A stretch of 42,531 nt of DNA from an uncultured Desulfobacterales bacterium (GCA_964532395.1 CAZHHS010000001.1:1-42531); one strand, 5' to 3'. Numbered from the stretch's first letter, positions 14,260 through 42,339 are shown. The notes: generated from the letters alone by a model not told the origin. Made by a program: numbers and translations.

Positions 14260-14261
14260 CC

Positions 14262-18026: not shown

Positions 18027-18119
18027 TCGGGCCAAAAATTGATGGTTTTTTTAACGAGCCTGTCCTTTGTGGCTGGGATAACCATTTGATTTTGTGCAAA
18101 TCAAGGCGGAAACCAATGG

Positions 18120-18138
18120 GAATTGTCCTTGACAATTC
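18120..18138. promoter_or_regulatory. perfect 8-3-8 palindrome GAATTGTC-CTT-GACAATTC (candidate operator)
   Basis: Read directly from the sequence. It overlaps a TTGACA hexamer (18129-18134) about 90 nt upstream of the REC gene ATG at 18225. Confidence 0.4.
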
Positions 18139-18224
18139 GATATCGGACTGATAACGGGTATGCTGATCAAATGGCATCAAAGGCCGATAACGGACCTAAT
18201 TCCAACCTGAAGGAGACAGGATCT

Positions 18225-26168: not shown

Positions 26169-26170
26169 TA

Positions 26171-27646
26171 ATGGAAACGGTCGTATCCATCAAGCCGTTG
26201 CTGGCTGTTCTTGTTTCTCTTCTAGTCACCCCCATACTGGCTTCAAGTCGAGCGCCGAATGTCCGGGAGATGTGGACATTTGTCGCGGCAGGGGTAAAAT
26301 TCCTGCTGGTTTTGTCCATGCTGCCGGTCATCCTTAATGGTACCCAAATCGTATATACGGTCGCTGAAGTGATACCGGGAGCCGCCATTAAATTCAAGGT
26401 CGATTCCTTTGGTATGCTCTTCGCTCTGGTCTCTTCGTCCTTGTGGATTGTAACCTCGGTCTACTCCATAGGTTATATGCGTGGGCTGAAGGAACACAGC
26501 CAGACCCGCTATTTTTGTTTCTTCGCCTTTGCACTGTCCGCCACTATCGGGGTTGCCTTTGCCGGAAACTTGTTAACGATGTACCTCTTTTATGAGATGC
26601 TTTCCTTGGCTACCTATCCCTTGGTCACGCATCATCAAGACCATGAGGCGCGAAGCTCGGGGCGCAAATATCTCTTATACATTGTGGGAACCTCGATCGG
26701 ACTGGTCTTGCCGGCTATGCTAATTTGTTACGATCTGGCAGGGACCCTGGAATTTGGGACGCAGGGTTTTTTAGCCGGAACGGGGGCGTCCAAGTCTTTG
26801 ATGGCGGTGCTGCTGGTTCTTCTCATCTTCGGGTTTGCAAAAGCGGCCATTATGCCCTTTCATTCATGGCTTCCTGCAGCGATGGTCGCACCTACGCCGG
26901 TTAGTGCTTTGCTGCATGCAGTGGCTGTTGTGAAAGTCGGTGTTTTCAGTGTTGTTCGAGTCATAACAGAAGTGTTTGGGACTGATTTGCTGTTTTCTTT
27001 AAATTTCAGCCCCATTATCCTCTTTTTCGCCTCTGCTACCATTCTTGTGGGCTCACTCATCGCCCTGTCTCAAGACAATCTTAAACGCCTTTTGGCTTTT
27101 TCCACCATCGCACAGCTTTCATACATTGTACTCGGCGTGGGGTTGCTCTCCCCTCTGGGAATGACCGGTGGAATGCTCCATATCGCCATGCACGCATTTG
27201 GCAAGATCACTCTCTTTTTTTGTGCCGGAGCGATCTTCGTGGCTACCGGCAAAAAGAACATCAGCGAGATGATCGGTATCGGCAGGAGAATGCCGGTGAC
27301 CATGGGCGCCTTTTTTATCGCTTCTCTAAGCATTACCGGTGTCCCACCCGGCGGCGGCTTCATTAGTAAATGGTATTTGGTCCTGGGGGCACTGCAAGCG
27401 CAACAAGTAGCGGTTCTTGTGGTGCTCCTGGTGAGCTCATTTCTGAATGCCTGTTACTTTCTGCCGATCGTCTACAAAGCATTTTTTTGTCCTCCGAAAG
27501 AGGTTATGTTTAAAGGCGGATTTCAAGAGGCCCCTGTTTTCTGTGTGGTTCCTCTGGTAATAACGGCCGTGATTTCCATCATTCTGCTCCTTTTTCCGCA
27601 ACCGTTTTTGCAGTTGGCCACAATGACCGTGCAAGGCTTGATGTAA
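26171..27646 (+). CDS. mrpD: antiporter-like subunit 2 (MrpD/NuoM family)
   Basis: 491 aa. FYEMLSLATYPLV, PFHSWLPAAMVAPTPVSALLHAVAVVKVG and AFSTIAQLSYIVLG are classical NuoL/M/N-MrpA/D motifs. Confidence 0.85.
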   Translation: METVVSIKPLLAVLVSLLVTPILASSRAPNVREMWTFVAAGVKFLLVLSMLPVILNGTQIVYTVAEVIPGAAIKFKVDSFGMLFALVSSSLWIVTSVYSIGYMRGLKEHSQTRYFCFFAFALSATIGVAFAGNLLTMYLFYEMLSLATYPLVTHHQDHEARSSGRKYLLYIVGTSIGLVLPAMLICYDLAGTLEFGTQGFLAGTGASKSLMAVLLVLLIFGFAKAAIMPFHSWLPAAMVAPTPVSALLHAVAVVKVGVFSVVRVITEVFGTDLLFSLNFSPIILFFASATILVGSLIALSQDNLKRLLAFSTIAQLSYIVLGVGLLSPLGMTGGMLHIAMHAFGKITLFFCAGAIFVATGKKNISEMIGIGRRMPVTMGAFFIASLSITGVPPGGGFISKWYLVLGALQAQQVAVLVVLLVSSFLNACYFLPIVYKAFFCPPKEVMFKGGFQEAPVFCVVPLVITAVISIILLLFPQPFLQLATMTVQGLM

Positions 27647-27657
27647 GGATATTTACC

Positions 27658-27798
27658 ATGACCGAAGAAAGAAGCGACGAAATAGAAGGCAAGATGGCGC
27701 TGTCCCATGCACCCGTGCCACCCTACAGGAAGGTCTTTTTTATAGCCATTACGGTGGGGGTGCTCTATCTCGGGCTGATTCTTTTTATGACCATTTGA
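27658..27798 (+). CDS. small single-TM protein (46 aa, not in supplied ORF track)
   Basis: ATG 27658 to TGA 27796-27798. The product is MTEERSDEIEGKMALSHAPVPPYRKVFFIAITVGVLYLGLILFMTI. It is tightly packed between two operon genes on the same strand. Confidence 0.45.
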   Translation: MTEERSDEIEGKMALSHAPVPPYRKVFFIAITVGVLYLGLILFMTI

Positions 27799-27841
27799 AA
27801 TAAATAGAGTCCGCCTCGTTTTGAAAGACAGGAAAACGAAA

Positions 27842-28102
27842 ATGAAAGAAGAAAAACAAGAGGGGAAAAGATATCTATTTGATGACCCCAAAAACGTGAA
27901 TAGACTTTTGGGGACTTTTTACGCCTCATTGATGGTGCTTCTCCTGGTGGAGTTCGTGGTTCATAAGCACCCGCATTTTCCTTGGGAAAAGTGGCCGGAA
28001 TTCTATTGTGTGTATGGTTTTGTTGCCTGTGTGGTATTGGTTATCGTGGCAAAATATATCTTGCGCCCTCTGGTTATGAGACGAGAGGACTATTATGATT
28101 AG
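27842..28102 (+). CDS. small two-TM membrane protein of unknown function
   Basis: 86 aa from ATG 27842 (the ORF track starts at TTG 27821). Two hydrophobic helices flank HKHPHFPWEKWPEFY. It overlaps the next gene by 8 nt. Confidence 0.5.
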   Translation: MKEEKQEGKRYLFDDPKNVNRLLGTFYASLMVLLLVEFVVHKHPHFPWEKWPEFYCVYGFVACVVLVIVAKYILRPLVMRREDYYD

Positions 28103-29864
28103 TACCGTTCCCCCCGCTGCCATATTTATCGTCGGAGGGTTGTTGGTTCCTTTCTTTAAGGGTAAGTGGAAAAGTGCGTTCCTGTTGCTCATTCCAGTTG
28201 TCGGATTTCTTAACCTGATTCACATACCGGAGGGAACCCATTGGGCCGTTGATTTCATGGGCTATAACCTGGTCTTTGGAGAAGTGGACAGGCTGAGCCT
28301 CGTATTCGGCTACATTTTTCACCTCATTACCTTTATAGCCCTTCTTTACGCCCTTCACGTGACAGACGACCTGCAACATGTGGGGGGACTGATCTATGCG
28401 GGGAGTTCCTTGGGGGTCGTCTTTTCGGGAGACCTTTTCTCTTTCTTCATCTTCTGGGAAACGCTTACCTTCAGCTCCGTATTATTGATTTGGACGCGAA
28501 GAACAAAGGCGTCTACAGCTGCCGGCTACAGATATGCCTTGGTCCATGTCGTGGGAGGGCTGTTCCTGCTGGCGGGGATCGTATTTTACGTCATTGAAAA
28601 GGGCTCCATCGAATTCGGATATATTGGATTGGACGGCCTGGCCAGTTATTTGATTTTTATCGGTTTCGGCATCAACTGTGCCTGGCCCATTCTCCACCCG
28701 TGGCTAACCGATGCCTATCCTGAAGCAACCATTACGGGAGCCATATTCTTGAGCGCTTTTACCACCAAGACAGCAGTCTATGCGCTGGCCAGGGCATTTC
28801 CCGGCACGGAGGCACTGATATGGATAGGAGCTCTCATGACGGGCTTTCCTATCTTTTACGCGGTCATCGAAAACGATCTCCGACGGGTTCTTGCCTACAG
28901 CCTGATCAACCAGGTGGGATTTATGGTCTGTGGTATCGGTATCGGCACGGCTCTTGCCATCAATGGCGCCGTGGCCCATGCCTTCAATGATATCTTGTTT
29001 AAAGCCCTGCTGTTTATGTCCATGGGGGCTGTTATGTACCGAACGGGTAAGATCAACGGAACCGCCTTGGGCGGACTGTACAGGACCATGCCCTTGACCT
29101 GTATTTTCTGTATGGTCGGGGCGGCATCCATATCCGCTTTTCCCCTGTTTAGCGGTTTTGTGAGTAAGTCCATGGTCATGGATGCGGCCGGGAAAGGTCA
29201 TATGCCGATTATATGGTTTGTCCTGCTTTTTGCTTCGGCCGGTGTATTCCATCACGCAGGCATCAAGATACCGTTTTTCGCATTTTTCGGCCATGATTCC
29301 GGTATGCGGCCCAAGGAAGCACCACTACATATGTTGCTGGCCATGGGTATTACCGCATTTTTGTGTATCTTTATCGGCTCTTTCCCCGGTCCTTTATACA
29401 GCTTGCTTCCCTATCCGGTCGATTATGAACCCTACACGATGGCTCATGTCGTCGGACAGACCCAGATACTATTTTTCTCGGCCCTGGCCTTTACCCTGCT
29501 GTTGCTTTCCGGAATATATCCGGCGGAAATGCGGTGTGTCAATCTGGACGCCGACTGGTTCTATCGTAAAGGGGGACGGCTTTTGTTCGGGGTGTTGGAT
29601 AATGTGTTCAACGGCATTAACAAGGCCGGAGAAGTGTTTGCTCGAGGGGTGGCCGGGGCTTTGGGCAGGCTATCCAGAAACGTTCCCGAGATAATTCTAC
29701 TCATAGTCATGGTTCCGTTATGGACTGCCGGTGGGGCAAAGGGAGAAAAACTCCAGGGGAAAATTGTGCGTGCGCGTGCCGCTCTGGAAACCGGAACGGC
29801 ACCCGTAGGCATCAGTGCGGCGGTGGCTACTATTTTTTTGGTTTTTCTTTTCGTTTTGATCTGA
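28095..29864 (+). CDS. antiporter-like subunit 3 (MrpA/MrpD/NuoL family) with C-terminal extension
   Basis: 589 aa. Proton_antipo_M-type core (FIFWETLTFSSVLLIW, LAYSLINQVGFMV, HAFNDILFKALLFM). A ~110-aa C-terminal tail ends in a final hydrophobic helix. Confidence 0.75.
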   Translation: MISTVPPAAIFIVGGLLVPFFKGKWKSAFLLLIPVVGFLNLIHIPEGTHWAVDFMGYNLVFGEVDRLSLVFGYIFHLITFIALLYALHVTDDLQHVGGLIYAGSSLGVVFSGDLFSFFIFWETLTFSSVLLIWTRRTKASTAAGYRYALVHVVGGLFLLAGIVFYVIEKGSIEFGYIGLDGLASYLIFIGFGINCAWPILHPWLTDAYPEATITGAIFLSAFTTKTAVYALARAFPGTEALIWIGALMTGFPIFYAVIENDLRRVLAYSLINQVGFMVCGIGIGTALAINGAVAHAFNDILFKALLFMSMGAVMYRTGKINGTALGGLYRTMPLTCIFCMVGAASISAFPLFSGFVSKSMVMDAAGKGHMPIIWFVLLFASAGVFHHAGIKIPFFAFFGHDSGMRPKEAPLHMLLAMGITAFLCIFIGSFPGPLYSLLPYPVDYEPYTMAHVVGQTQILFFSALAFTLLLLSGIYPAEMRCVNLDADWFYRKGGRLLFGVLDNVFNGINKAGEVFARGVAGALGRLSRNVPEIILLIVMVPLWTAGGAKGEKLQGKIVRARAALETGTAPVGISAAVATIFLVFLFVLI

Positions 29865-30497: not shown

Positions 30498-31652
30498 TTA
30501 AAGAACCCCTTTGAGGTAGACGAAGAAGGTAGTTCCTTTCCCGCTGGTGGAAGACACTTTGACTTCGCCACCATGTTCTTCCACGATTTTTTGGGTGATG
30601 AGTAGCCCGAGTCCCGTCCCTCGCCCCTCCTTGGTACTGAAAAAGCGGGAGAAGAGTTTTTCTTGAACCTCTTGCGTCATTCCCATGCCGTTGTCGGATA
30701 CTTCAAAGACCAGTATCTTTTCTTCGTTTTTCTCCACCCGTGTTCGCACCGTAACCTGCCAGTTTTTTGAAGTGTCGGGATCGAAAATGCAGGCATCAAT
30801 GGCATTAGAAACCAAATTGAGGAGGACCCGATGTATACCCGATTTGTCCAGTTGGGCCCGTTCGACCGTCGGGTCCAAGTCGGTGTTCAATGTGACTTGA
30901 TGTTCTGCGGCGTAGTCTTTGACCAGGTCTAATACATCCGATACGATTTCCTTGGGATTACACTCCGTGGGTTCCGGCTTTCTGTCTTTGGAATATGTCA
31001 GCAAGTCCATGACCAGCTCGGATACTCGTTCAACATTTCGGCTGACTACACGCCAGCCCTCGCGCAGCATCTTCGGCTTATCCTTCTCCAGCCCCACATT
31101 CACCATGTACATCCCCCCCCGCAAACCGGTGAGGATATTCTTAATGTAGTGGGCCAAGCCCGCCACCGTCTCGCCGATGGTGGCCAGCCGTTCATTGCGA
31201 ATGACGTCCTCCTGGGCTTTTTCGAGATCGATCTTGCAGGCTTCGACCTTGTCCTCGAGGTTCTCCGTATAATCCCTCAGCTGTCGGGCCATGGTAAGTT
31301 TTTTTTCGGCCCTTTCCAGTGACAGCATCAGGACTTCATCACGTATCGGTTTGGTGATAAAATCCGAGGCCCCGTTTTGAAGCGCCTGTACGGCCGAATC
31401 CATGTCCCCGTGGCCGGTAATGACGATGACTTCGGTTTCGCTACCGGACTCATTGATTCGCTTGAGCACCTCAATGCCGTCTATTCCGGACATTTTGATA
31501 TCCGTGATGACGATTTCGGGTGACTCCTGCGCGAAGATCTCAAGTCCCTCCCGACCGCTTTGTGCCGTAAGGACTTCATATCCTTCGCTGGTCAGGCTAA
31601 GTTCCAACATTTCCAGGACCGGTTTTTCATCGTCAATGATGAGCAGTTTCAT
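30498..31652 (-). CDS. hybrid receiver-histidine kinase (REC + HisKA + HATPase)
   Basis: 384 aa from ATG 31650-31652. REC motifs LIIDDEK, VITDIKMSGIDG, VITGHG and FITKP. H-box VAGLAHYIKNIL, and ATPase boxes NLVSNAIDA, DNGMGM and GTGLGLLIT. It overlaps the upstream kinase gene by 20 nt. Confidence 0.85.
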   Translation of the reverse strand: MKLLIIDDEKPVLEMLELSLTSEGYEVLTAQSGREGLEIFAQESPEIVITDIKMSGIDGIEVLKRINESGSETEVIVITGHGDMDSAVQALQNGASDFITKPIRDEVLMLSLERAEKKLTMARQLRDYTENLEDKVEACKIDLEKAQEDVIRNERLATIGETVAGLAHYIKNILTGLRGGMYMVNVGLEKDKPKMLREGWRVVSRNVERVSELVMDLLTYSKDRKPEPTECNPKEIVSDVLDLVKDYAAEHQVTLNTDLDPTVERAQLDKSGIHRVLLNLVSNAIDACIFDPDTSKNWQVTVRTRVEKNEEKILVFEVSDNGMGMTQEVQEKLFSRFFSTKEGRGTGLGLLITQKIVEEHGGEVKVSSTSGKGTTFFVYLKGVL

Positions 31653-33909
31653 CCTTGGACTCCCCTTGTCGTCGAACAATTGGAAATATAACCCTAAAGG
31701 TGGTCCCCTCATCCAGGGTGGAGTCAACTTCTATGTCTCCATTAAAATCTTTCACCAGATTGAAGCTGATAGACAGTCCCAAGCCGGTCCCCCGTCCGAC
31801 CTGCTTGGTCGTAAAGAAGGGTTCGAATATCTTTTGCTCGGTTTGTTCGGACATTCCCTCTCCCGTGTCGGAAACCAGGGCCACCACGTATTCTCCCTCT
31901 TGCCGGGTTGATATGGTCAGTTTCTTTTCCCGGTCCGAACCGACCGCCTCCATGGCATCACGCGCGTTGGTTACCAGGTTTAAAAAGACCTGTTCCAGCC
32001 GGTTTTTGTCCCCTTGGATGTCAGGCAAGTCCTCCGCCAGGTCAAGATCCACCTTGATATTGCGCAAGTTCAACTGTTGGCCAAGCATCGTGAATACATC
32101 ACGGATCGGTTCATTCAGATTCATCGGGTAAACATGAAAATCACTTTTTCGCCCGAATTCTCTCAAATGATTGATGATGTTACTCGACCGGGCGACCTGT
32201 TCACTGATGTTGCGGCTTACCGTCAATAGCTGTTCCGGGGAAATCTCTTGGCCTTTCTTGATCATTTTGGCCAAGAAATCGGCTCCCACTTGTATGGCGT
32301 TCAGGGGTTGGTTGATCTCATGGGCGATCCCTGTGGCCATTTCGCCCAAGGTGGCCATCTTGCTTGCCTGGGTGAGTTTGGCATCCTGTTCCAGACGCCG
32401 CGTTACGTCCACGGTGCGCACAATCAATGTGCCGCCGGAGGTGCCGTTCTCCGCATCCCGGAGTTTTCCGGAACGGGCGTGAAGGTTTATCACGAAATTG
32501 TCTCCGTTACGCTTTTTCGCCCAGACTTTGGGTACAAAGACATAGACGTCCTGTGGGGCTTGCTCCAGTTCCCCCCATACCCGTTTGGCCTCTTCTTCAT
32601 CGAGTAAATCGAGAAACGACCTTCCCAGGAGATCCTCATGTTCATACTGATAGGTTGCGCCTGCAGAATTGTTCACGTCCAGGATCTTTCCGGAATCCCA
32701 ATCTACGGTGAACAAGGGATTGGGATCGTTGTTGAACAGGAGGCGATATTTCTCCTCGCTGGCTTTGACCTCTTCTTCTATCTTTAACCGGTCTTGGACT
32801 TCCTGCTTGAGTTTTCGGTTGGCCACGATAAGTTCCGCGGTCCGTTCCTTCACCCGTTGCTCGAGTTCGTCGCGCGCCTTTTGGAGCTCTTCTTCCGCAA
32901 TATGCCGGGCGGAAATGTCCACGACATTGCCTAAGATGGCCGGTTTGCCGTGGTATTCGATGCGGGAGTTACGACGCTTAATCCAAATGGTTTCCCCGTT
33001 CTTTTTGAGACCCCTGGCCTCGTATTCAGACGGGACGGTATGACCTTTCAGGCGTCGTTGTCGGGTTTCTTTGACGAGTTTCCGGTCGTCGGGATGAACG
33101 AAATCGAGCACGTCCATGCCTTCCAACTCATCGCGGGCATAGCCGAAAATGTCGGCGAACCGTTTGTTGGCGAACTGGATTTTTTCATGCTGGTCGATGT
33201 AAATGCCGATGAGCGAATTCTCCACCAAGGTGCTGTATTTTTCTTCCGACTCCCGAAGGGCTTTTTCCGCCTGCCGTCGTTCCGCGATCTCGTTGGATAC
33301 ACTTTGAATCGTTTCATTGGTTACTTTGGCCAACGATTGGAGTAGTTCCAACTGAGAGAACCCGGATACCCTGGCGTCCAGATTCCCTTTGGAGACACGG
33401 TGCAGCACATCGAAGTGCTCAGCCAACCCGATAGCAAAATCATGGGAAAGATTAACAATTTCTCCCAAGTTTTCTGCCGTTGTATTGACCAGGTGTTTCA
33501 GTTTAGAGAGGAGTTCCAGCCTGGATTCTTCCGATACCCGGGCTTCGGGATTTCCCGAGGAGATCTGCTTCAGCGCCTCGAAGACCTCGGAAAGACCCAG
33601 GGCCAATTCCATGCTGAGGTCTTCCAGCTCTTGGTCCCGTTCTTCGACCATTTCCCGAAAGGCGGTGAATTGCTTATGTACCACTTTCAGCGTTTCTTCC
33701 ATGGAATCGAGGTCGATGTTTCTTTTGAACGGTTCGCAGTCCAGGCAAAGCTCGATTTTTTCCAAAAACCTTCCCTGAATTTCGTTTCTGCAAAAGGTTC
33801 CCGGAACCAGCCAACATTTGTATGTTTGGGTTTTATATGCCGGGCATTCCGTTTCCCCGCAATTAAGAACCTCCCAGCATTTTACTTTCTCCGACTTGGA
33901 CTCGTTCAT
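31633..33909 (-). CDS. multi-PAS sensor histidine kinase with N-terminal Cys-rich two-CW-type domain
   Basis: 758 aa with no TM helix. N-terminus KCWEVLNCGETECPAYKTQTYKCWLVPGTFC...CLDC. Two to three PAS blocks, H-box ATGIAHEINQPLNAI, and ATPase boxes NLVTNARDA, DTGEGM and GTGLGLSIS. Confidence 0.85.
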   Translation of the reverse strand: MNESKSEKVKCWEVLNCGETECPAYKTQTYKCWLVPGTFCRNEIQGRFLEKIELCLDCEPFKRNIDLDSMEETLKVVHKQFTAFREMVEERDQELEDLSMELALGLSEVFEALKQISSGNPEARVSEESRLELLSKLKHLVNTTAENLGEIVNLSHDFAIGLAEHFDVLHRVSKGNLDARVSGFSQLELLQSLAKVTNETIQSVSNEIAERRQAEKALRESEEKYSTLVENSLIGIYIDQHEKIQFANKRFADIFGYARDELEGMDVLDFVHPDDRKLVKETRQRRLKGHTVPSEYEARGLKKNGETIWIKRRNSRIEYHGKPAILGNVVDISARHIAEEELQKARDELEQRVKERTAELIVANRKLKQEVQDRLKIEEEVKASEEKYRLLFNNDPNPLFTVDWDSGKILDVNNSAGATYQYEHEDLLGRSFLDLLDEEEAKRVWGELEQAPQDVYVFVPKVWAKKRNGDNFVINLHARSGKLRDAENGTSGGTLIVRTVDVTRRLEQDAKLTQASKMATLGEMATGIAHEINQPLNAIQVGADFLAKMIKKGQEISPEQLLTVSRNISEQVARSSNIINHLREFGRKSDFHVYPMNLNEPIRDVFTMLGQQLNLRNIKVDLDLAEDLPDIQGDKNRLEQVFLNLVTNARDAMEAVGSDREKKLTISTRQEGEYVVALVSDTGEGMSEQTEQKIFEPFFTTKQVGRGTGLGLSISFNLVKDFNGDIEVDSTLDEGTTFRVIFPIVRRQGESKDETAHH

Positions 33910-34134: not shown

Positions 34135-34569
34135 ATGTCCAAGAAAATTCTGATTGTGGATGACGAGCCAGACATCATTACTTTTCTCAGTGCGCTTCTT
34201 GAGGAGAACGGTTATGAAAGCGTGAGTGCCAAGGACGGGACGGAGGGGTTGGAACTGTTGCGGAAAGAGAAACCGGACTTGGTGTTGCTCGATCTCATGA
34301 TGCCGAAGAAAAGCGGGATTACGATGTTTCAGGAGCTGAGAAAAGATCCTGAACTGAGTGATATCCCGGTTATCGTCGTAACCGGTGTGTCCGAAGTTAC
34401 AGGCGTTGATTTTCGAAACTTTATGTTCAAACAGCCGATGCGGGATGAAAAGAAGTTTGTGGAGACGACCGGGCTTTCAAAATACACGGTTCCGGACGGC
34501 TACATCGAAAAGCCGATTGACCCGGATGAATTGATCAAGGTGGTTAACGAGACCTTGAACGCGCGTTAA
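34135..34569 (+). CDS. single-domain response regulator (receiver)
   Basis: 144 aa from ATG 34135, with AGGAGG at 34123-34128. Motifs ILIVDDEPD, VLLDLMMPKKSG, VVTGVS and YIEKP. Confidence 0.85.
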   Translation: MSKKILIVDDEPDIITFLSALLEENGYESVSAKDGTEGLELLRKEKPDLVLLDLMMPKKSGITMFQELRKDPELSDIPVIVVTGVSEVTGVDFRNFMFKQPMRDEKKFVETTGLSKYTVPDGYIEKPIDPDELIKVVNETLNAR

Positions 34570-34616
34570 CCAAGCCGGAAAATCGGGGTGTGCCCCCGTA
34601 TGGGCGCTTTCCACGA

Positions 34617-34639
34617 GGTCCGGACCTGGGGTCCGGACT
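34617..34639 (+). terminator. possible intrinsic terminator hairpin
   Basis: GGTCCGGACC-tgg-GGTCCGGAC can form an 8-9 bp GC-rich stem. The trailing ttcattgtttc is only a weak U-tract. It lies 48 nt after the REC stop. Confidence 0.3.
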
Positions 34640-34753
34640 TCATTGTTTCAAACGGGCAAGGCGTTCCCCAAAAACCGGGCCCCCCTATCTGCGGGTGTAA
34701 TTGTCGCCTTTCCGCTGAACCGCCTAAGTGCCGCCTCCCGGGAAAATCTCTTC

Positions 34754-34782
34754 TTGACATTGGCGCCTACTTGTCATATAAG
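34754..34782 (+). promoter_or_regulatory. sigma-70-type promoter of the cytochrome-rnf operon
   Basis: TTGACA (34754-34759), a 17-nt spacer, then TATAAG (34777-34782). It would give a ~190-nt leader before ATG 34982. Confidence 0.55.
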
Positions 34783-34981
34783 GCCGACGAACTCTACGAG
34801 GCTCGTGTCATCACCATTTCCTGACGATGTATCCTACGCAACCGAGGGTGATAATGTTGTCAAAGAGCGGAATTGCCCGGTTTTCTATCACGCACATCCC
34901 TCCCCGGCGGATAAACGGACCTGAACTTTCCCTGGTTTCTGAACAATCGGGATTCAAACGGCGAAAGGAACGTTTGATACA

Positions 34982-35353
34982 ATGACATCAAAGATGGAAC
35001 TGTTGTTTATTTACGGCCTAGCGGCCATCTTGCTCATTATCGGCGTTGTGTGTTACGCATCGTTTTCCCAGGAAGTTCCCGATGAACCGGTAAGGCTGGT
35101 ATTTGACACAAGTGCCGGTAAGGTTCTGTTTGATCATCAAACCCATTCGTCCGCGGACGGTTACGGCTTTTACTGCGAAGATTGTCATCACTACGAGCAA
35201 GATGACGGCGGGATGGGGTGTGACGGACCTTACTGCCACGGTGCGGACACGGAGCCCACCCGATCGGACGCCTTCCATGCCAATTGCCAGGGCTGTCATG
35301 AAGAAAGCGGGGCCGGTCCGGTTGAATGCGGTACGTGCCACTTGCAGTATTAA
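34982..35353 (+). CDS. membrane-anchored tetrahaem cytochrome c (c3/class III-like)
   Basis: 123 aa with an N-terminal hydrophobic anchor LLFIYGLAAILLIIGVVCYA. Four haem motifs: CEDCH, CDGPYCH (Cx4CH), CQGCH and CGTCH. The soluble part has exactly 8 His, enough for four bis-His haems. Confidence 0.8.
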   Translation: MTSKMELLFIYGLAAILLIIGVVCYASFSQEVPDEPVRLVFDTSAGKVLFDHQTHSSADGYGFYCEDCHHYEQDDGGMGCDGPYCHGADTEPTRSDAFHANCQGCHEESGAGPVECGTCHLQY

Positions 35354-35387
35354 GGCCAACAGGGATACCAACACAGGGGATCGTATT

Positions 35388-36680
35388 ATGATAAAAAGAC
35401 CGTTTCTGGGAATTGTGAAGCCGAAACTGAATTACAACGTGGTTCCGGATGAAGTTCAAGAGCTTAAAGTGCCAAAGGATGTGACCCTGCTGTTAAGAGA
35501 CGACAATCCCGGAGCGGGCGGGGATCTCGAGGTCGGGGCCAAGGTGAAAACCGGCCAGCGATTGAGTAAGTCCGCCGAAAGCTCAACCTATGTCATTTCT
35601 TCCGTAACCGGGACCATCTCCAATCTATTTCCCTATGTTGGCTCTTTCGGGGAAGTTTATCCTTACGGAGGCATATTTGAACAATCGTATACCGCCATAA
35701 CCATCGCTGCCGACGAAAAAGACGTATGGGACGATGAATATACGGGGGACGCCTCCCTGGACACCGCGCTTCGCTTCTTTGAATATCTACCGGGCAATCC
35801 TTCTTTCCGCGCCTTTGCCGATCCGAACACCGCCATACGGATGATCATCATATGCGGCCAGGACCAAGATTTGCTTTTGACCGCCAATCAGGCCGTCATT
35901 CAAAACGAGCTTGACGCCATCAAGACAGGTGTTAAAGCGCTCAAGGACATGACGGGCGTGGATCGAATTTTACTCACTGTTCCCGAGGGCATGGTGCAAC
36001 AAGCGATTTCGACCGGTGCGGAGGCGAAGGCCTTGAGCGCCGAATATCCGTCCGGCCTGCCACACATGATTATGAAAGACGTTGTGGGAACCGTAATACC
36101 GGAAGGTCACACACCGGCGGAGGCCGGGGCGTTCTTTATCAGTGCGGAAGCAGTTGCGGCCTTGGGGGCCTCTGTGGACACGGGCCGACTCTGCGTTACT
36201 AAGATGGTCAGCGTAGTTAGAAAAGGGGGAAAGGCCACCAACCTGAAAGTCAGAATCGGCACTCCGTTACGAGTGCTGCTTGGGGCCTGTGGTATTACCG
36301 TCAAAGATCGCGACCGGATGATCTTGGGTGGTCCGATGAGAGGGGTAGCTACCTACTCGGACGAACTGCCCATAGAACCCCAAACAGACGGCCTTGTGGT
36401 GCAAGATCAGCAGGAAAGCCCCTTGTTGGCGGATCATCCCTGCATCAACTGTGGTGAGTGCATTAAGATCTGTCCGGTTAAGATACCGGTAAACATGCTC
36501 ATTCGCTTTTTGGAAGCAAGCCTTTATGAAGATGCCAGAGATATGTATGAATTGGCATGTTGTATCGAGTGTGGCTTGTGTGCATATGTGTGTCCGTCCA
36601 GGATTCCAATTTTTCAGTATATTCAGCTGGCAAAGCGCGAACTGGACCTACGGGAAGCCGCGGAGGCAGAAAATGAATAG
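35388..36680 (+). CDS. rnfC: RnfC-like subunit with degenerate nucleotide/FMN-binding motifs
   Basis: 430 aa from ATG 35388. RnfC-type C-terminus with two [4Fe-4S] motifs (CINCGECIKICP, CIECGLCAYVCP) and ILGGPMRG. No GGAGFP-type loop is present. The upstream part of the long ORF overlaps the cytochrome gene and was trimmed. Confidence 0.7.
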   Translation: MIKRPFLGIVKPKLNYNVVPDEVQELKVPKDVTLLLRDDNPGAGGDLEVGAKVKTGQRLSKSAESSTYVISSVTGTISNLFPYVGSFGEVYPYGGIFEQSYTAITIAADEKDVWDDEYTGDASLDTALRFFEYLPGNPSFRAFADPNTAIRMIIICGQDQDLLLTANQAVIQNELDAIKTGVKALKDMTGVDRILLTVPEGMVQQAISTGAEAKALSAEYPSGLPHMIMKDVVGTVIPEGHTPAEAGAFFISAEAVAALGASVDTGRLCVTKMVSVVRKGGKATNLKVRIGTPLRVLLGACGITVKDRDRMILGGPMRGVATYSDELPIEPQTDGLVVQDQQESPLLADHPCINCGECIKICPVKIPVNMLIRFLEASLYEDARDMYELACCIECGLCAYVCPSRIPIFQYIQLAKRELDLREAAEAENE

Positions 36681-37650
36681 GGACTTGAGTGGTGAAAAGC
36701 TGGTTGTTTCTTATGCCCCCTACTGGCATGACGGCAGAACGGTTTCATCCAGGCACCGGCAGATGATGCTTGCTGCCCTTCCTGCAGTAATCATGGGAAT
36801 CAGCCAATATGGCAGTCCGGCGCTGGGTATGATCTCCCTGGCGACGGCGTCGGCCGTCATTTGGGAATTTATCATGAATTTGATGCTCGGCAAGCGTGTT
36901 TCCATCGGTGACGGAAGCGCGGCGGTAACCGGCCTCTTGTTGGGCATGCTGTTGCCTGCGACCGCGCCTTGGTGGATTGTCATTTTGGGCACATTCTTGG
37001 CGATCATCGTAGGCAAACAAATATTCGGCGGCCTCGGCCTCAACCCCTTAAATCCCCCCTTGCTTGCCTTGGCCATGCTGGTCATTTCGTTCGGAAGTAT
37101 CTTTGACTTCAATATGGCCCTACGTAATTACGAATTGGGGTTTGCCATGACCTATCCCCTTGCCGACTTGAAGGCCCTGGGAACGGCGGGCATAGCTCAT
37201 TTTAGTGTGGGTGACTTGTTTATGGGCAAGCAGATCGGCGGGGTCGGGTCCACTTTCGGGCTGGGACTGGTGATCGGAGGCATATACCTGATCCTGAGAG
37301 GGTACGTACGGTGGGAACTCTCCCTCTCTTTCTTGGCGGGTGTCTTCATCACGGCTTGGCTGTTTAATCTGTCCGATTCCACTGCGTACGCCGGTCCCCT
37401 GTTCCACTTATTTACCGGTTATACGTTGATCGCCGCATTTTTCCTGGTTCCGGAGGATTCCTCATCTCCGGTCAACTTTATTCCCATGCTGATATTCGGT
37501 GCCTTGGCCGGCGTCATGACCGTGTTGATTCGGAATGTGGGGGCCTACGTGGACGGCGTTCCCTTTTCGATCCTATTGCTGAATCTTGCCAACCCCCTAC
37601 TCGACAAAATTAGACCGAAAGCGGTTGGAAAGGTGGTTGAAAATGCGTGA
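36673..37650 (+). CDS. rnfD: RnfD (NqrB-like) membrane subunit
   Basis: 325 aa from ATG 36673, overlapping the rnfC stop. Polytopic. Blocks GDGSAAVTGLLLGMLLP, KQIFGGLGLNPLNPPL and TGYTLIAAFFLVPEDSSSP are typical of RnfD/NqrB. Confidence 0.8.
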   Translation: MNRDLSGEKLVVSYAPYWHDGRTVSSRHRQMMLAALPAVIMGISQYGSPALGMISLATASAVIWEFIMNLMLGKRVSIGDGSAAVTGLLLGMLLPATAPWWIVILGTFLAIIVGKQIFGGLGLNPLNPPLLALAMLVISFGSIFDFNMALRNYELGFAMTYPLADLKALGTAGIAHFSVGDLFMGKQIGGVGSTFGLGLVIGGIYLILRGYVRWELSLSFLAGVFITAWLFNLSDSTAYAGPLFHLFTGYTLIAAFFLVPEDSSSPVNFIPMLIFGALAGVMTVLIRNVGAYVDGVPFSILLLNLANPLLDKIRPKAVGKVVENA

Positions 37651-38224
37651 TATCATCCGGATGATCGTGGTTCTCGGCCTCCTGGCCGCATGTTCCGGCG
37701 CGTTGCTGGCGGCCGTTAAGTCCGGGACGGCGAAACAGATTGAGGTCCAGCAGCTTAAATTTGTAAAGGGGCCGGCCATAAAAGCGATTTTGGAAGGTGC
37801 AGCCAACGATCCCATTCAGGATCGATTCAAGCTCATGGACGGGGATACGGAACGGACGTTTTTTGTGGGCAAGTTTGAAAACAAACCGACGGCTATTGCT
37901 TACGAGACCTTTGGAAAGGGGTATGGTGGTGATATCGGCATCATGGTCGGGGTGGATCTCAAAACCGACCAACTCGTAGGGATAGGCATTACCACTCACT
38001 CTGAAACGCCCGGCTTGGGCGCCAGAGCCAAAACCGACCAGGAGTTCAAAAACAGTTTCCAGGGGCTTTCCTTAAAAGACCCTATCAAGGTTGATGATGT
38101 GGACGCCGTTTCCGGAGCAACCATTACGTCTAAAGGTGTGTGTACGGGGATTAACAACAGCGCCGATTTCTACGAACGATTGAAACCGAAAATTGTTGAA
38201 AAGGCGAAGTCCGTTACCGACTAG
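37643..38224 (+). CDS. rnfG: RnfG (NqrC-like) FMN-binding subunit
   Basis: 193 aa from ATG 37643, overlapping the rnfD stop. It has an N-terminal anchor. ETPGLGAR and the flavinylation motif DAVSGATITS (Dxx(S/T)GAT) are present. Confidence 0.85.
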   Translation: MRDIIRMIVVLGLLAACSGALLAAVKSGTAKQIEVQQLKFVKGPAIKAILEGAANDPIQDRFKLMDGDTERTFFVGKFENKPTAIAYETFGKGYGGDIGIMVGVDLKTDQLVGIGITTHSETPGLGARAKTDQEFKNSFQGLSLKDPIKVDDVDAVSGATITSKGVCTGINNSADFYERLKPKIVEKAKSVTD

Positions 38225-38235
38225 GGGGAGAAATA

Positions 38236-38850
38236 ATGGCCAAGACGATTGTTCAAGAATTCACCAAGGGGTTGTGGGAAGAGATCCCACCCTTCCGGCT
38301 GGTGTTGGGCCTGTGTCCGATTTTGGCGGTAACCAAATCCGTGGCAAATGGATTCGGCATGGGGGTGGCCGCCACCTTCGTACTGTTGTGTTCCAACGTT
38401 CTAGTCTCCGTGCTGCGATCCATAATCCCGGTTAAGGTTCGGGTGCCCTGTTTCATCATTATTATCGCTACCTTTGTTGTTGTGGTGGAGCTGGTGATGC
38501 AGGCGGTCGCTTATCCTTTGTTTCTGCAGCTGGGCATTTTCATACCGCTCATTGTGGTAAACTGTGTCATTTTGGGGCGCGCTGAAGCCTTTGCCTTCAA
38601 GAACCGTGTGACCTATGCGGCCGCAGACGGGCTGGGCATCGGTCTCGGGTTTACCCTTTCGCTGACCGCGGTTGGTGCCGTTCGCGAAATCCTGGGCAAT
38701 GGAACGGTTTCCATTCCTTTTACAGACCAAGTGATTCCGCTTTTCGGGCCCGCTTTTCAGCCCTTTACATTTATGGTGGAGGCGCCCGGGGCTTTTGTCT
38801 GTTTGGGCCTGATGCTGGGGTTGATGGACCTGGTGGGGAGTAAGGGATAG
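38236..38850 (+). CDS. rnfE: RnfE (NqrD-like) membrane subunit
   Basis: 204 aa. LVLGLCPILAVT and GIFIPLIVVNCVILGRAEAFA are hallmark RnfE/NqrD blocks. Confidence 0.85.
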   Translation: MAKTIVQEFTKGLWEEIPPFRLVLGLCPILAVTKSVANGFGMGVAATFVLLCSNVLVSVLRSIIPVKVRVPCFIIIIATFVVVVELVMQAVAYPLFLQLGIFIPLIVVNCVILGRAEAFAFKNRVTYAAADGLGIGLGFTLSLTAVGAVREILGNGTVSIPFTDQVIPLFGPAFQPFTFMVEAPGAFVCLGLMLGLMDLVGSKG

Positions 38851-38932
38851 ACACGAGTGAGCCAATTTGGTGATAAAAGGGTTTCTGGTTAGCCGTCCTT
38901 CTGAAAAACGGAGGCGATGAAGGAGTCATCTG

Positions 38933-39580
38933 ATGGGAGATTACATATTGCTGGCCATAAGCGCCATCCTGGTGAACAACATCTTGTTGATTCAGTATTT
39001 GGGCAATTGCCCCTTTCTGGGAACCTCCAAAAAGATGGAAACGGCCACAGGTATGGCTATGGCGGTGGTCTTCGTGCTGGCCATGGCCGGCATCGTTACA
39101 TGGATTTTGGAGATGGTGTTCCTTAAGCCGCTGGGTCTGGAATATATTCGAACGATCGTGTTTATCCTGGTTATCGCTTCGTTGGTCCAATTCGTGGAGT
39201 TGTTCCTCAAAAAGACCATACCGGCGTTGTATGCCGGTCTCGGGATTTTCCTGCCTCTTATTACGACCAACTGTGCGGTCATGGGGGTATGTTTGATCAA
39301 TGTCAAGGAGGAGTATAATTTTCTCGAGATGCTGGTTTCTTCTTTGTCCTATCCTGCCGGTTTTGGTTTGGCCCTTATTCTTTTCGCCGGCCTCCGGGAG
39401 CGCATCAATGTGGGACGGGTGACGGCCCGAAAAAGGACCGGCGTTGCCTTGATCGACAAAAGGATGCGTGACCGGGTGACCATCGGGCGGGTGCCGGGGC
39501 CCTTACAAGATGTGGCCATTGCATTGGTGACGGCGGGATTCATGTCGCTGGCCTTTCTGGGATTCAAGGGAATGATTTAG
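38933..39580 (+). CDS. rnfA: RnfA (NqrE-like) membrane subunit with basic loop insertion
   Basis: 215 aa. YLGNCPFLGTSKK and GIFLPLITTNCAVMG are hallmark RnfA blocks. About 22 extra residues sit between RER and the VPGP...ALVTAGFMSLAF end. Confidence 0.85.
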   Translation: MGDYILLAISAILVNNILLIQYLGNCPFLGTSKKMETATGMAMAVVFVLAMAGIVTWILEMVFLKPLGLEYIRTIVFILVIASLVQFVELFLKKTIPALYAGLGIFLPLITTNCAVMGVCLINVKEEYNFLEMLVSSLSYPAGFGLALILFAGLRERINVGRVTARKRTGVALIDKRMRDRVTIGRVPGPLQDVAIALVTAGFMSLAFLGFKGMI

Positions 39581-39587
39581 GAGATAG

Positions 39588-41681
39588 ATGATGATAGAAG
39601 CCTTGCTTGTCATGTTGGGATTGGGGGCTGTTTCGGGAACCCTTCTGGGGATTGCCTCAAAGGTGTTTTACGTTTGGGAAGATCCGCGGATTGCCGAAGT
39701 CGAGGACTGTCTGGCCGGTGCCAATTGCGGGGGGTGTGGATATACCGGGTGCAGCGCTTGTGCCGCCGCTATTGTGTCCGGGGAAGCCCCGGTGAGCGCT
39801 TGCATCGTCGGCGGAACCGGTTCCGCAACCCGCGTGGCCGCGGTCATGGGCATGGAAGTGGGGGCTGCCGAACCGTTGACGTCTGAAAATACCTGCACGG
39901 GCGGGTTCCGGGCACCGGAAAAGTACTATTATATGGGCATCAGTGATTGTCGCGCCGCCGCCCAACTCTACGGGGGCGCCAAGGCGTGTACCGTCGGGTG
40001 TCTGGGATACGGTACGTGTGTCAAGGCATGTCTGTTCGACGCTTTGGAGATGGGCCCGGACAACGTCCCGGTGGTGAAGGTTGAAAATTGTGTCGGTTGC
40101 GGCGCTTGCCAGTCCGTATGTCCCAAAGGGATCATGAAAGTAAGGACGCCCTCTCAGCGGGTCTTGCGATTTCACGAGCGAACGGATCGGTTGGCGCCCT
40201 GTCGGCAGACCTGTCCTGCCGAAATCAATATTCCGCAGTATATCGACCATATTAAACATGAAGAATATGATCAGGCCTATCTGACGATTATGGAACGAAA
40301 TCCCATGCCCCTTTCCATCGGTCGGGTTTGCCCGCATCCCTGTGAGGATGCATGCCGCCGGGCGGTGGGTGGCGACGATCCCGTTTCCATTAACCAGCTG
40401 AAACGGTTTTGTTCCGACTGGGTCTTTGATAACAATGCGCCCGTTAATATTCCGGTGGCACCGGATACGGGATTCAAGGTGGCCATTGTCGGGGGCGGCC
40501 CCAGTGGTTTGAGTGCGGCATTTTTCTTAAGGCGGTTGGGTCACCAAGTGAAGATCTATGAGTGGATGCCGGAGCTCGGGGGCATGATTTACTATGGGAT
40601 TCCGGAATATCGCCTGCCCAAAAAGATCCTGGGTCAGGATGTGCAACGGATCCTCGACCTGGGGGTTCAAGTCAAAACGGGGGTAAAGTTCGGCGTGGAC
40701 TTCGATTTGGAATCCTTGGTGGGCGGCGGGTATGATGCCGTGCTTACATCTATCGGTGCATGGAATCACGCTTCGGCACGCATTCCCGACGAAGACAAAG
40801 TCAAAGGGGTTATTCCGGCGACGATCTTTTTGCGACGCCAAGGGCTGGGGGAGGCCAATCCGATCGGCAAGCGGGTCGGTGTCATCGGGGGCGGCAATGT
40901 GGCCATGGACGCCCTGCGGACCAGCGTGCGCTTGGGGGCCGAAAAAGTCTACTGCCTCTACCGAAGAGAGATCAAGGACATGCCGGCGAACCAGGTGGAA
41001 ATCGAGGCGTGTAAACATGAAGGCATCGAATTCATTACGCTGTGTACACCGACCAAGTTCGTCACGGACGACGACGGGAACCTGACCGGTATCGAGTATC
41101 TGAAAAACGAACTCGGGGAACCCGACGCCAGCGGGCGGCAAAAACCGGTGCCTGTCGAAGGGTCGGAAACGGTGCTTCCTCTGGACAACTTTATCTTGGC
41201 GATCGGTCAGGTAACGGATTCATCGTTTGTCAATGAGGAAGGCGCCGCTGTGGCCAGACTTTCAACAAAGAAAGGGGCCATTGTCTGTGACTCGGATACG
41301 CAGCAAACCGATATTCCGTATGTCTTTTCAAGCGGGGACTCCGCCGGACCGCCGGGACTTCTGGTCGCGGCCATCGGGGCGGGGAGGCGGGCCGCCCGGG
41401 GAATCCACAAGTATCTCATGGGCGAGGAAATGGCCTTCCCCGAGACCAGGCTTCGAGTCGATCCGGGGCGGATGACCGGGCATATCCCCGGGACCATATT
41501 CGAACATGTGGAAGGTGTTCAGAAGAAGGGCCGTATCGGCCAACCGGAACTGGAACCGGGTTCATATGAACGACAGCATACGTTTGCCGAGGTGGATTTA
41601 ACCATCAGTGAAGCAGATGCCTTAAAAGAGGCAAATCGGTGTATGCGGTGCTGTTTGACCTGTTACGACCGTGACATATAA
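39588..41681 (+). CDS. rnfB: RnfB fused to GltD/NfnB-like FAD-NAD(P)H oxidoreductase
   Basis: 697 aa with AGGAG RBS. The N-terminal part has a TM anchor, the RnfB Fe-S motif CGGCGYTGC, and ferredoxin motifs CTVGCLGYGTCVKACLFDAL and CVGCGACQSVCP. From about aa 200 it reads CRQTCPAEINIPQY...CPHPCEDAC, VAIVGGGPSGLSAA and VGVIGGGNVAMD. Confidence 0.8.
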   Translation: MMIEALLVMLGLGAVSGTLLGIASKVFYVWEDPRIAEVEDCLAGANCGGCGYTGCSACAAAIVSGEAPVSACIVGGTGSATRVAAVMGMEVGAAEPLTSENTCTGGFRAPEKYYYMGISDCRAAAQLYGGAKACTVGCLGYGTCVKACLFDALEMGPDNVPVVKVENCVGCGACQSVCPKGIMKVRTPSQRVLRFHERTDRLAPCRQTCPAEINIPQYIDHIKHEEYDQAYLTIMERNPMPLSIGRVCPHPCEDACRRAVGGDDPVSINQLKRFCSDWVFDNNAPVNIPVAPDTGFKVAIVGGGPSGLSAAFFLRRLGHQVKIYEWMPELGGMIYYGIPEYRLPKKILGQDVQRILDLGVQVKTGVKFGVDFDLESLVGGGYDAVLTSIGAWNHASARIPDEDKVKGVIPATIFLRRQGLGEANPIGKRVGVIGGGNVAMDALRTSVRLGAEKVYCLYRREIKDMPANQVEIEACKHEGIEFITLCTPTKFVTDDDGNLTGIEYLKNELGEPDASGRQKPVPVEGSETVLPLDNFILAIGQVTDSSFVNEEGAAVARLSTKKGAIVCDSDTQQTDIPYVFSSGDSAGPPGLLVAAIGAGRRAARGIHKYLMGEEMAFPETRLRVDPGRMTGHIPGTIFEHVEGVQKKGRIGQPELEPGSYERQHTFAEVDLTISEADALKEANRCMRCCLTCYDRDI

Positions 41682-41796
41682 ATAGGTGGATTATTACATT
41701 GGGGGATTGGCTTCACGGTGTTGAGACCGGGGTTAATCCCCCGAATTGTGTGGGGACGTTGAACCGAAACTCAGAGCGAAGGCGGGTATATATCCA

Positions 41797-42339
41797 ATGA
41801 ATGAGGCAAATGGAACGATCCCGGATAACCCCCCGAGCGATACTCAGGAAACCGACGCAGGCGGCGTGGTCATCCTGGGTATCGGGAACCTACTCTTGTC
41901 GGATGAGGGTATCGGGGTTCACGTGGCCAACCGATTGCTGGAGATGGATCTTCCTCCGGGCGTGCGGGTCATCGAAGGCGGAACCGACGGCTTTCGATTA
42001 ATGAATGTCGTGACAGGGGCTGACCGGGTGGTGGTGGTCGATGCTGTCAAAGGGGGGGGAGAGCCGGGGTCCATATATCGGTTTAACATTGAGGACGCCC
42101 CGTCATCACCGGACACCTTCAAGACCTCGGTTCACCAGATCGGTATACTTGAAGTGATTCACTTTTCGGAATTTCTGGGCAAAACGCCTGAGGCCACCGT
42201 CATCGGTGTGGAACCCAAGTCGATCGAGATGTCCATGGAGCTTTCGCCGGAGATTCAGGAGAAGGTGCCACGGGTCATCGAGTTGGTCCTTGAAGAAGTC
42301 AACAAGTATCTGTCCGAAACAGGCAAGTCCGCGTCTTAG
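41797..42339 (+). CDS. hydrogenase maturation endopeptidase family protein (HyaD/HybD/HoxM-like)
   Basis: 180 aa from ATG 41797. VVILGIGNLLLSDEGIGVHV, VVVVDAV and SVHQIG match the Glu/Asp-Asp-His metal-ligand blocks of this family. Confidence 0.7.
   Translation: MNEANGTIPDNPPSDTQETDAGGVVILGIGNLLLSDEGIGVHVANRLLEMDLPPGVRVIEGGTDGFRLMNVVTGADRVVVVDAVKGGGEPGSIYRFNIEDAPSSPDTFKTSVHQIGILEVIHFSEFLGKTPEATVIGVEPKSIEMSMELSPEIQEKVPRVIELVLEEVNKYLSETGKSAS

Follow-up and report, generated by a model that had tools for sequence, protein, structure and literature searches.

An Rnf2-type operon of an uncultured Desulfobacterales bacterium with a lost RnfD flavinylation site and a putative NADPH port on RnfB

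How would electrons pass through an Rnf complex whose RnfC has lost its NADH site and whose RnfD has lost its covalent flavin, and in which RnfB has acquired a pyridine-nucleotide module of its own? This question is raised by an operon in a 42,531-nucleotide (nt) stretch of DNA from an uncultured Desulfobacterales bacterium (GCA_964532395.1 CAZHHS010000001.1:1-42531), referred to here as the window, in which open reading frame (ORF) calls place eight genes, all on the plus strand, at 34982-42339: a cytochrome gene, rnfC, D, G, E, A and B, and a protease gene. The locus is almost certainly an Rnf operon of the Rnf2 type, the type of Desulfobacula toluolica Tol2. The explanation that we favour joins this identity to a route on which electrons would enter from NADPH at RnfB and leave through a periplasmic cytochrome c3, and we give the two together a probability of roughly 0.55.

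Gene identities were assigned by Pfam and NCBIfam profile scans judged against the cutoffs of the models, and the E-values of the subunits lie far beyond chance. All six subunit genes are found together by Pfam, and the NCBIfam models for rnfD, rnfG, rnfE, rnfA and rnfB score above cutoff. Start codons were refined on the sequence for RnfC (35388), RnfD (36673) and RnfG (37643), the latter two each overlapping the preceding stop codon by 8 nt.

The first departure from canonical Rnf lies in RnfC (35388-36680, plus strand), a variant with two [4Fe-4S] motifs and a degenerate site for NADH and flavin mononucleotide (FMN). In the Pfam scan Complex1_51K reached 28.4 bits against a cutoff of 31.2, RnfC_N stayed below its cutoff and SLBB went undetected; the NCBIfam model TIGR01945 scored 188 against a cutoff of 246. 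When the protein is aligned with RnfC of C. tetanomorphum and with four canonical RnfC from related loci, the Gly-rich GxGGxxFP loop is gone, ECEPYLT is degenerate (QDQDLLLT), YPQGAEKQ reads YPSGLPHM, and both CxxCxxCxxxCP motifs are intact. This pattern extends to every Rnf2-type RnfC from the related loci described below: GxGGxxFP and ECEPY are absent in 54 of 54 sequences, and the two CxxCxxCxxxC motifs are present in all 54, from several phyla, with the eight Cys invariant over a range of 28-94% identity. Conservation is centred on this iron-sulfur domain; nowhere in the complex is it lower than in the N-terminal and Nuo51-like remainder of RnfC. NqrA models (Pfam NQRA_2nd; NCBIfam nqrA) match the RnfC core as well.

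RnfD (36673-37650, plus strand; PF03116, E=5e-87) departs at its flavin site. The covalent FMN site of A. woodii RnfD is T156, the last Thr of the motif TTAT (PMC11889175). In HMMER alignments the window's AMTY falls on the TTAT of both 7zc6_D (C. tetanomorphum) and 9eri_D (A. woodii), and these alignments and a 66-sequence MAFFT alignment agree in placing a Tyr at the position of T156. None of roughly 59 Rnf2-type sequences has a Thr there; in the majority the residue is Tyr, and in the remainder F, H, D, N or S. We considered a shifted flavinylation site at the Thr before this Tyr and rejected it, since that residue varies within the family (AAAY, TPFY, SFRY and others). The positions of the riboflavin ligands (N123 and D249 in A. 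woodii) are N and E in the window and are mostly kept among Rnf2-type RnfD, as N/S/H and D/E. Four canonical rnf clusters that lie beside an Rnf2 cluster in related genomes keep S(T/M)ATPL in RnfD together with the GGAGFP loop in RnfC.

The remaining membrane subunits have their expected cofactor sites. RnfG (37643-38224, plus strand; NF045876 RnfG_DVU2794, 230 bits, above cutoff) is the periplasmic FMN_bind subunit with an intact DAVSGAT, and the flavinylated Thr of its SGAT-type motif is kept in 63 of 63 aligned sequences, four of which have Gly instead of Ser/Thr as the first residue of the motif. RnfE (38236-38850, plus strand) carries the [2Fe-2S] ligands Cys27 and Cys110, equivalent to C25 and C108 of A. 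woodii, and RnfA (38933-39580, plus strand) carries Cys26 and Cys114, equivalent to C25 and C113. RnfA of the window also has a 24-amino-acid (aa) insertion of basic character, VGRVTARKRTGVALIDKRMRDRVT, in the loop that precedes the last helix (window 39446-39520, residues ~172-196), which is common to L002, L006 and L014 only and absent in all other family members. A side observation concerns RnfG, where most members have a Cys about nine residues past the flavinylated Thr (SGATITS(R/K)GVC; window 38125-38139, residues ~162-166).

The largest departure is in RnfB, a 697-aa fusion protein (39588-41681, plus strand) that we call RnfB::GltD. It consists of a transmembrane helix, the RnfB [4Fe-4S] domain, a Fer4 dicluster, Fer4_20 with two [4Fe-4S] clusters, a loop for flavin adenine dinucleotide (FAD), an NAD(P)H loop (GGGNVAMD...YRR...MPAN) and a C-terminal RCxxCCxxC tail, with PF04060 and Fer4 at residues 42-182 and Fer4_20 and Pyr_redox_2 at 203-599 by Pfam. 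Over residues 2-195 the protein matches solved chains of RnfB (E=1e-48 and 1e-45), and the homology ends at about residue 195 of the 333-aa A. woodii and 274-aa C. tetanomorphum proteins; the distal part of RnfB has therefore been replaced. In a search of PDB chains, residues 186-690 match GltD-family modules, the best solved relatives being the NfnA/StnC subunits of Bfu-type NfnABC/Stn transhydrogenases (9bov_A, E=1e-108; 9n5u_A, 1e-105; 8oh5_C, 1e-91). GltD/NfnB proper matches more weakly (E=1e-60 to 1e-84), among these matches being NfnB of T. maritima and P. furiosus (4ylf_B at 6e-84, and 5jca_L; 1e-84 to 1e-82) and, separately, 6s6s_G (8e-60). The original prediction had described RnfC as keeping both cluster motifs without the FMN/NADH loops, RnfD as lacking a flavinylation motif, RnfG as keeping DAVSGAT and RnfB as carrying a GltD/NfnB-type C-terminal module of about 500 aa; the motif alignments and sub-cutoff profile scores, the structure-based alignments, the window sequence itself and the Pfam and PDB chain matches, respectively, bear each of these out.

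Twenty-four Cys are invariant in 68 of 68 aligned RnfB::GltD sequences and three more in 67. Those of the C-terminal RCxxC(C/G)xxC tail (C685, C688 and C692; window 41640-41681) are invariant in all 68. Since the Fer4_20 region holds only five invariant Cys, the tail probably supplies the missing ligands for both of its clusters. The same RCxxC tail follows the module in NfnA/StnC and in a paralogue within the window (9506-11599). It also resembles the N-terminal RCxxC motif of ordinary GltD/NfnB, an apparent circular permutation.

Which nucleotide this module would use is suggested by its second Rossmann motif, GGGNVAMD...LYRR...MPAN, which is kept in the Desulfobacterota clades; a preference for NADPH is usually marked by basic residues that follow the second beta-strand. 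A distant clade of the family (L054-L064 and L069) has YP(Y/F)S in place of YRR...MPAN, and its RnfB module may differ in nucleotide specificity. In NfnABC/Stn, NADPH binds beside the corresponding FAD, electrons pass singly down the iron-sulfur chain, and bifurcation is assigned to a site other than this FAD (PMC11829005). Together these likenesses suggest that the RnfB module is an NADPH entry port.

The paralogue belongs to a further cluster at window 7201-11599 (plus strand), which encodes a NuoE/HydC-like protein (7201-7701), a NuoF/HydB-like protein (7739-9493) with Complex1_51K, NADH_4Fe-4S and Fer4, and a second 697-aa protein (9506-11599) with Fer2_4, Fer4_Nqo3, Fer4_20 and Pyr_redox_2, the GltD module of which is 38% identical to that of RnfB. 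This cluster resembles a Bfu-type NfnABC/Stn-like transhydrogenase that lacks the formate-dehydrogenase-like domain.

The cytochrome gene (34982-35353, plus strand) encodes a 123-aa tetrahaem cytochrome c3-like protein with three CxxCH motifs, one CxxxxCH and eight His, which matches Pfam Cytochrom_CIII (E=3.3e-10); the closest NCBIfam model, TmcA c3, falls below cutoff. A hydrophobic stretch at its N-terminus would be an anchor or signal sequence. In essentially every related locus with enough flanking sequence, across phyla, a cytochrome gene stands upstream of rnfC. Several of the distant loci (L054-L064, L069) have two tandem cytochrome genes or up to eight haem motifs.

To determine how far this architecture extends, we searched a database of 5.8 billion proteins with RnfB::GltD, collecting results as 90%-identity clusters, and scanned GTDB genomes for homologues. 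The protein search found over 100 clusters, 681-751 aa long and covered over their full length, with identities of 53-97%, from Desulfobacterales, Syntrophales, Desulfatibacillaceae, Ca. Desulfarcum and Thermodesulfobacteriota; the genome scan yielded 72 loci with homologues (L001-L072). RnfB homologues of more than 600 aa carrying Pyr_redox_2, for which the original prediction had proposed a database search, are therefore numerous, and, as it had also proposed, the fusion co-occurs with an RnfC lacking the NADH/FMN loop (54 of 54). The order cytochrome-RnfC-D-G-E-A-RnfB::GltD is found in about 60 loci, essentially all of those with enough flank. A close clade of uncultured Desulfobacterales shows 76-97% identity, with a DNA identity of 93% for L002. 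Desulfosarcina, Desulfatitalea and the cultured D. alkaliphila M08but belong to a Desulfosarcinaceae-like clade at 51-55%, and the same architecture and gene order are seen in Desulfosarcina sp. (L050) and D. alkaliphila (L065), with RnfB identities of 51-54%. A distant set at 35-39% comes from Aminicenantes, Spirochaetes, Leptospirales and Neomarinimicrobiota. When clustered at 50%, the top matches comprise about seven full-length fused clusters, the others being NfnA/StnC-like proteins of 1000-1250 aa that share the module alone. Many of the distant loci (L054-L064, L069) have in addition a separate, stand-alone GltD-like gene about 4 kb downstream.

The assignment to Rnf2 was made by published description and through proxy loci in Desulfosarcina and Desulfatitalea. 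The window matches the published traits of a fused RnfB of about 700 aa, an RnfC without the FMN and soluble-ligand-binding domains, and a cytochrome c3 gene. A Tol2-type Rnf with an RnfB of about 700 aa and NAD+-binding sites was reported for D. toluolica by Doerries et al. 2016 (PMC5109826), who trace it to Woehlbrand et al. 2016 (Proteomics 16:973, as cited there). The same study found both Rnf types side by side in D. multivorans and D. autotrophicum HRM2, Rnf2 subunits formed under all conditions tested, and a 15-kDa cytochrome whose gene lies within the rnf2 cluster (PMC5109826). A 2025 Sci Adv paper from the same group gave Rnf2 its name, placed it in all Desulfobacteraceae genomes and in their core genome, described it as abundantly and constitutively formed, noted the c3 gene in its cluster and its presence also in Desulfarculus baarsii and Desulfovibrio salexigens, and proposed that electrons exit to cytochrome c3, then Qrc, then menaquinone (PMC11887813); its supplement calls the remaining subunits 'very similar'. 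The same cluster appears in an earlier genome paper as 'type four', cyt-rnfCDGEA, with rnfB unrecognised (PMC4046663). In four of our loci a canonical rnf cluster lies divergently beside the Rnf2 cluster on the minus strand (L007 1-3568, L009 310-3849, L012 5-4437, L072 5-4326), its RnfC with GGAGFP and ECEPY, which mirrors the colocalisation of Rnf1 and Rnf2 in D. multivorans.

The suggestion that an RnfB-GltD fusion is new thus fails, as the architecture has been reported since 2016 (PMC5109826, PMC11887813). The type is widespread and described, yet to call it already characterised would go too far, as we found no enzymatic or structural characterisation of an Rnf2-type complex in the literature searched. 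Likewise, the proposal that NAD(P)H enters or leaves through RnfB rather than RnfC, with a c3-type partner, is consistent with all of our findings and coincides with a published hypothesis, and so does not stand as a novelty. Possibly new are the loss of the covalent-FMN site of RnfD across the whole family, of which we found no mention for the six-subunit Rnf2 in the Rnf2 literature examined; the finding that the nearest counterpart of the RnfB module is the NADPH-entry module of NfnABC/Stn; and the periplasmic [NiFe] hydrogenase just downstream in the nearest clade.

Comparison with known systems places the window's complex more precisely. Like Rnf2 of Desulfobacteraceae, it joins an RnfB N-terminus to a pyridine-nucleotide-disulfide-oxidoreductase module of about 500 aa in a protein of about 700 aa, has an RnfC without Complex1_51K/FMN and SLBB, and comes with a small cytochrome c3 gene; the family, in published genomes as in ours, can coexist with an adjoining canonical Rnf. 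It differs from Rnf2 of Desulfosarcinaceae in that the RnfB proteins are just 51-55% identical, in having four haem motifs instead of five, in the RnfA insertion, and in the [NiFe] hydrogenase and protease downstream in its clade. With canonical Rnf (A. woodii 9eri, C. tetanomorphum 7zc6, A. vinelandii 8ahx) it shares six homologous subunits, the N-terminal 195 residues of RnfB, the RnfA/E [2Fe-2S] ligands, the covalent FMN motif of RnfG and the two RnfC [4Fe-4S] clusters, whereas the NADH/FMN site of RnfC and the covalent-FMN Thr of RnfD are missing, the distal ferredoxin domains of RnfB have given way to the FAD/NAD(P)H module, and a cytochrome has been added.

A co-encoded c-type cytochrome beside an Rnf core is also known from Methanosarcina, where the multihaem MmcA is thought to be the electron exit at the outer face; that system is archaeal, its RnfB is a polyferredoxin without an FAD/NAD(P)H module, and Methanosarcina-type NCBIfam models score far below cutoff on the window's subunits. 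Na+-NQR has a homologous membrane core, an NAD(P)H-oxidising flavoprotein at the position of RnfB (NqrF) and a counterpart of RnfC (NqrA) without a nucleotide site. In contrast to the window's complex, however, NqrF, an FAD/[2Fe-2S] protein, is unrelated, clusters are missing from NqrA, the covalent FMN is retained in NqrB and the acceptor is a quinone; the cluster encodes no NqrF-type protein, nqr models fall far below cutoff, and the window's RnfC has its two cluster motifs. To NfnA/StnC (9bov, 9n5u, 8oh5) the module is 40-50% identical over about 500 residues and shares the preceding Fer4 motif and an EAxRCxxC tail, but there it sits on HydA-like or formate-dehydrogenase-like domains of soluble proteins, and here on a membrane-anchored RnfB; by ORF calls and Pfam the cluster has no NfnA or GltB partner gene, and the GltD/NfnB module is fused to RnfB, not stand-alone. 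The two-subunit Nqr/Rnf-like complexes (Meheust 2021; PMC10979944) also have an RnfD-like protein without the flavinylated Thr and an RnfG-like protein that keeps it, and one-way electron transfer from NAD(P)H to extracytosolic acceptors has been proposed for them (PMC10979944). There, PF00175 is fused to the RnfD-like protein and RnfA, E, B and C are absent, whereas the window has all six subunits and, by Pfam, an RnfD without a fused NAD-binding domain.

Downstream of rnfB, the last gene encodes a HyaD/HybD-type [NiFe] hydrogenase maturation endopeptidase (41794-42339, plus strand; Pfam, NCBIfam), whose ORF opens at a TTG at 41746 with a likely ATG start at 41794, and the window ends 192 nt after it. 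In 14 loci of the closest clade, HynS/HynL and the protease lie 0.3-5 kb downstream of rnfB, as a periplasmic hydrogenase with a Tat signal and a small and a large subunit (L004 11518-14613, L015 12512-15845, L001 10360-16383 and others). In L001 the protease comes first, as in the window, with the hydrogenase about 3 kb further on; in a fifteenth locus, the nearest relative L002, only the first 39 protease codons and HynL fragments are found. A hydrogenase-type protease does follow rnfB, as originally predicted, but because hydrogenase and protease follow rnfB in these 14 loci it is better read as part of a hydrogenase module than as a component of Rnf, an assignment that we considered and set aside. 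Such surroundings, which are specific to this clade, agree with a connection by way of c3 between periplasmic H2 metabolism and Rnf2.

From this inventory of cofactor sites we infer an electron route running from NADPH through RnfB, RnfA/E and RnfG to cytochrome c3, to which in this specific form we give somewhat less than an even chance. The FAD of the C-terminal module of RnfB would oxidise NADPH (or reduce NADP+), and single electrons would travel via five [4Fe-4S] clusters, two in the GltD-like domain, two in the RnfB dicluster and one close to the membrane, to the membrane [2Fe-2S] cluster of RnfA/E, which would serve as the ion-coupling site, as the RnfA/E cluster does in A. woodii. Electrons would then reach the periplasmic FMN of RnfG and be handed to the tetrahaem cytochrome c3, not to a flavin on RnfD. 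The cytochrome would link the complex to Qrc, menaquinone and sulfate reduction or, in the reverse direction, to the periplasmic [NiFe] hydrogenase. On the cytoplasmic side a second port, made up of the RnfC clusters and the riboflavin site of RnfD, would serve a partner that is not NAD(H), with ferredoxin the most plausible one. In essence this scheme repeats the published hypothesis and adds NADPH and the RnfD observation to it.

Several points weigh against this route. Between NADPH and low-potential c3 haems the driving force left for ion pumping is small, unless the c3 pool is kept oxidised. The strict conservation of the eight RnfC Cys argues that electrons still reach RnfC, and the model does not explain how they would get there from the FMN of RnfG past the missing FMN of RnfD. 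The preference for NADPH over NADH is deduced from homologues and the YRR motif, and published descriptions of Rnf2 say simply NAD-binding (PMC5109826). The number of haems in the cluster's cytochrome varies by clade, from four to eight, and the hydrogenase neighbourhood is limited to one clade.

In an alternative that we consider rather unlikely, the U-shaped path is kept and its ends are swapped: ferredoxin would dock at RnfC, NADP(H) would react at RnfB, and the cytochrome would be a side branch. Loss of FMN would have opened the RnfC pocket, and the FMN of RnfG would reach the riboflavin of RnfD through this vacated space. Such an arrangement would agree with RnfC clusters that stay invariant over 28-94% identity, with riboflavin-ligand positions in RnfD that are mostly kept and whose residues are essential in A. 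woodii, and with the replacement of the ferredoxin-docking distal domains of RnfB. There is also a precedent in the two-subunit complexes, which lose the RnfD-like site and in which the RnfG-like flavin has been proposed to sample a non-covalent site (PMC10979944). However, the cytochrome gene accompanies the cluster in essentially all loci, whatever the phylum, which points to more than a side role, and the low conservation of RnfC outside its iron-sulfur domain suggests that constraint has relaxed, not that a docking surface has arisen; ferredoxin binding by RnfC is an assumption of this arrangement.

It is less probable still that the complex is purely an NAD(P)H:cytochrome c3 oxidoreductase that works like Nqr, with RnfC and the cytoplasmic half of RnfD left as structural remnants in the manner of NqrA. 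The match of the RnfC core to NQRA_2nd and nqrA, the poor conservation of its N-terminal and Nuo51-like parts and the lost covalent FMN site of RnfD would all fit, yet NqrA is free of cofactors, and eight cluster Cys that are invariant in 54 of 54 RnfC are hard to reconcile with a vestige.

Electron bifurcation or confurcation at the GltD-like FAD, as in NfnB, with electrons split between the RnfB chain and RnfC, strikes us as very improbable. In its favour, NfnB of T. maritima and P. furiosus is a homologue of the module, and there are two separate cluster chains on the cytoplasmic side, in RnfB and in RnfC; but in the closest relatives, NfnA/StnC, this FAD is a plain NADPH entry site (PMC11829005), the RnfB and RnfC clusters of A. 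woodii lie more than 30 Å apart (PMC11889175), and Pfam finds no NfnA-type [2Fe-2S]/FAD partner encoded in the cluster. Finally, an error of assembly or a frameshift that merged rnfB with a separate gltD-like gene into the 697-aa ORF can be dismissed with near certainty, and the ORF taken as genuine, given that 67 full-length homologues at 35-97% identity from independent assemblies share the same junction and, tail included, the 24 invariant Cys, that more than 100 clusters of 681-751 aa carry the fusion, and that a protein of about 700 aa has been detected by proteomics in cultured strains (PMC5109826, PMC11887813).

Upstream of the cluster, a single-domain response regulator gene (34135-34569, plus strand) is followed by a terminator-like hairpin of 12 bp (34615-34641, plus strand), which marks the 5' boundary of the transcription unit; the response-regulator neighbourhood is kept solely in the closest relatives L001, L002 and L011. 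As for the promoter that had been predicted to open the operon, weak sigma-70-like hexamers (TTGACA-17 nt-TATAAG) can indeed be read at 34754-34782 (plus strand), but a promoter scanner run on the region does not list this site, which fails its rule, and since promoter-like matches in the region occur at background level the hexamers are statistically meaningless. An Rfam scan of the whole window gave no match. PAS histidine kinases and hybrid response regulators are densely packed at 11878-19860 (plus strand) and 31633-33909 (minus strand). The kinase at 31633-33909, which is divergent and lies just upstream of the response regulator and the rnf2 cluster, has an N-terminal Cys-rich stretch, CWEVLNCGETECPAYKTQTYKCWLVPGTFC, that could bind a metal or an iron-sulfur cluster. 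Three successive Proton_antipo_M genes of 500, 491 and 589 aa (24666-29864, plus strand) suggest an Mrp/Mnh-type antiporter or an Mbx/Nuo-like membrane arm.

The locus adds no new kind of system and is another example of the described Rnf2 type. It does bring constraints on the reaction of Rnf2: all members have lost the RnfD flavin site and retain the RnfC clusters, the module on RnfB resembles an NADPH port, and the same cluster occurs well outside the sulfate reducers. Because the loss of the RnfD FMN, the loss of the RnfC NADH site, the NADPH module of RnfB and the obligatory cytochrome gene combine, we tentatively suggest, while holding it to be a good deal short of probable, that Rnf2 is an ion-pumping NADPH (and/or ferredoxin):cytochrome c3 oxidoreductase and not a ferredoxin:NAD+ oxidoreductase, in which the swinging flavin of RnfG would hand its electrons to a haem instead of to RnfD. 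Rnf2 is reported to be among the most abundant membrane complexes of Desulfobacteraceae (PMC11887813), a family to which a large part of the carbon oxidation in marine sediments is attributed. If the suggestion is true, completely oxidising sulfate reducers would have in Rnf2 their missing exporter of electrons from cytoplasm to periplasm, and the same exporter would be present in Aminicenantes, Spirochaetes and other phyla.

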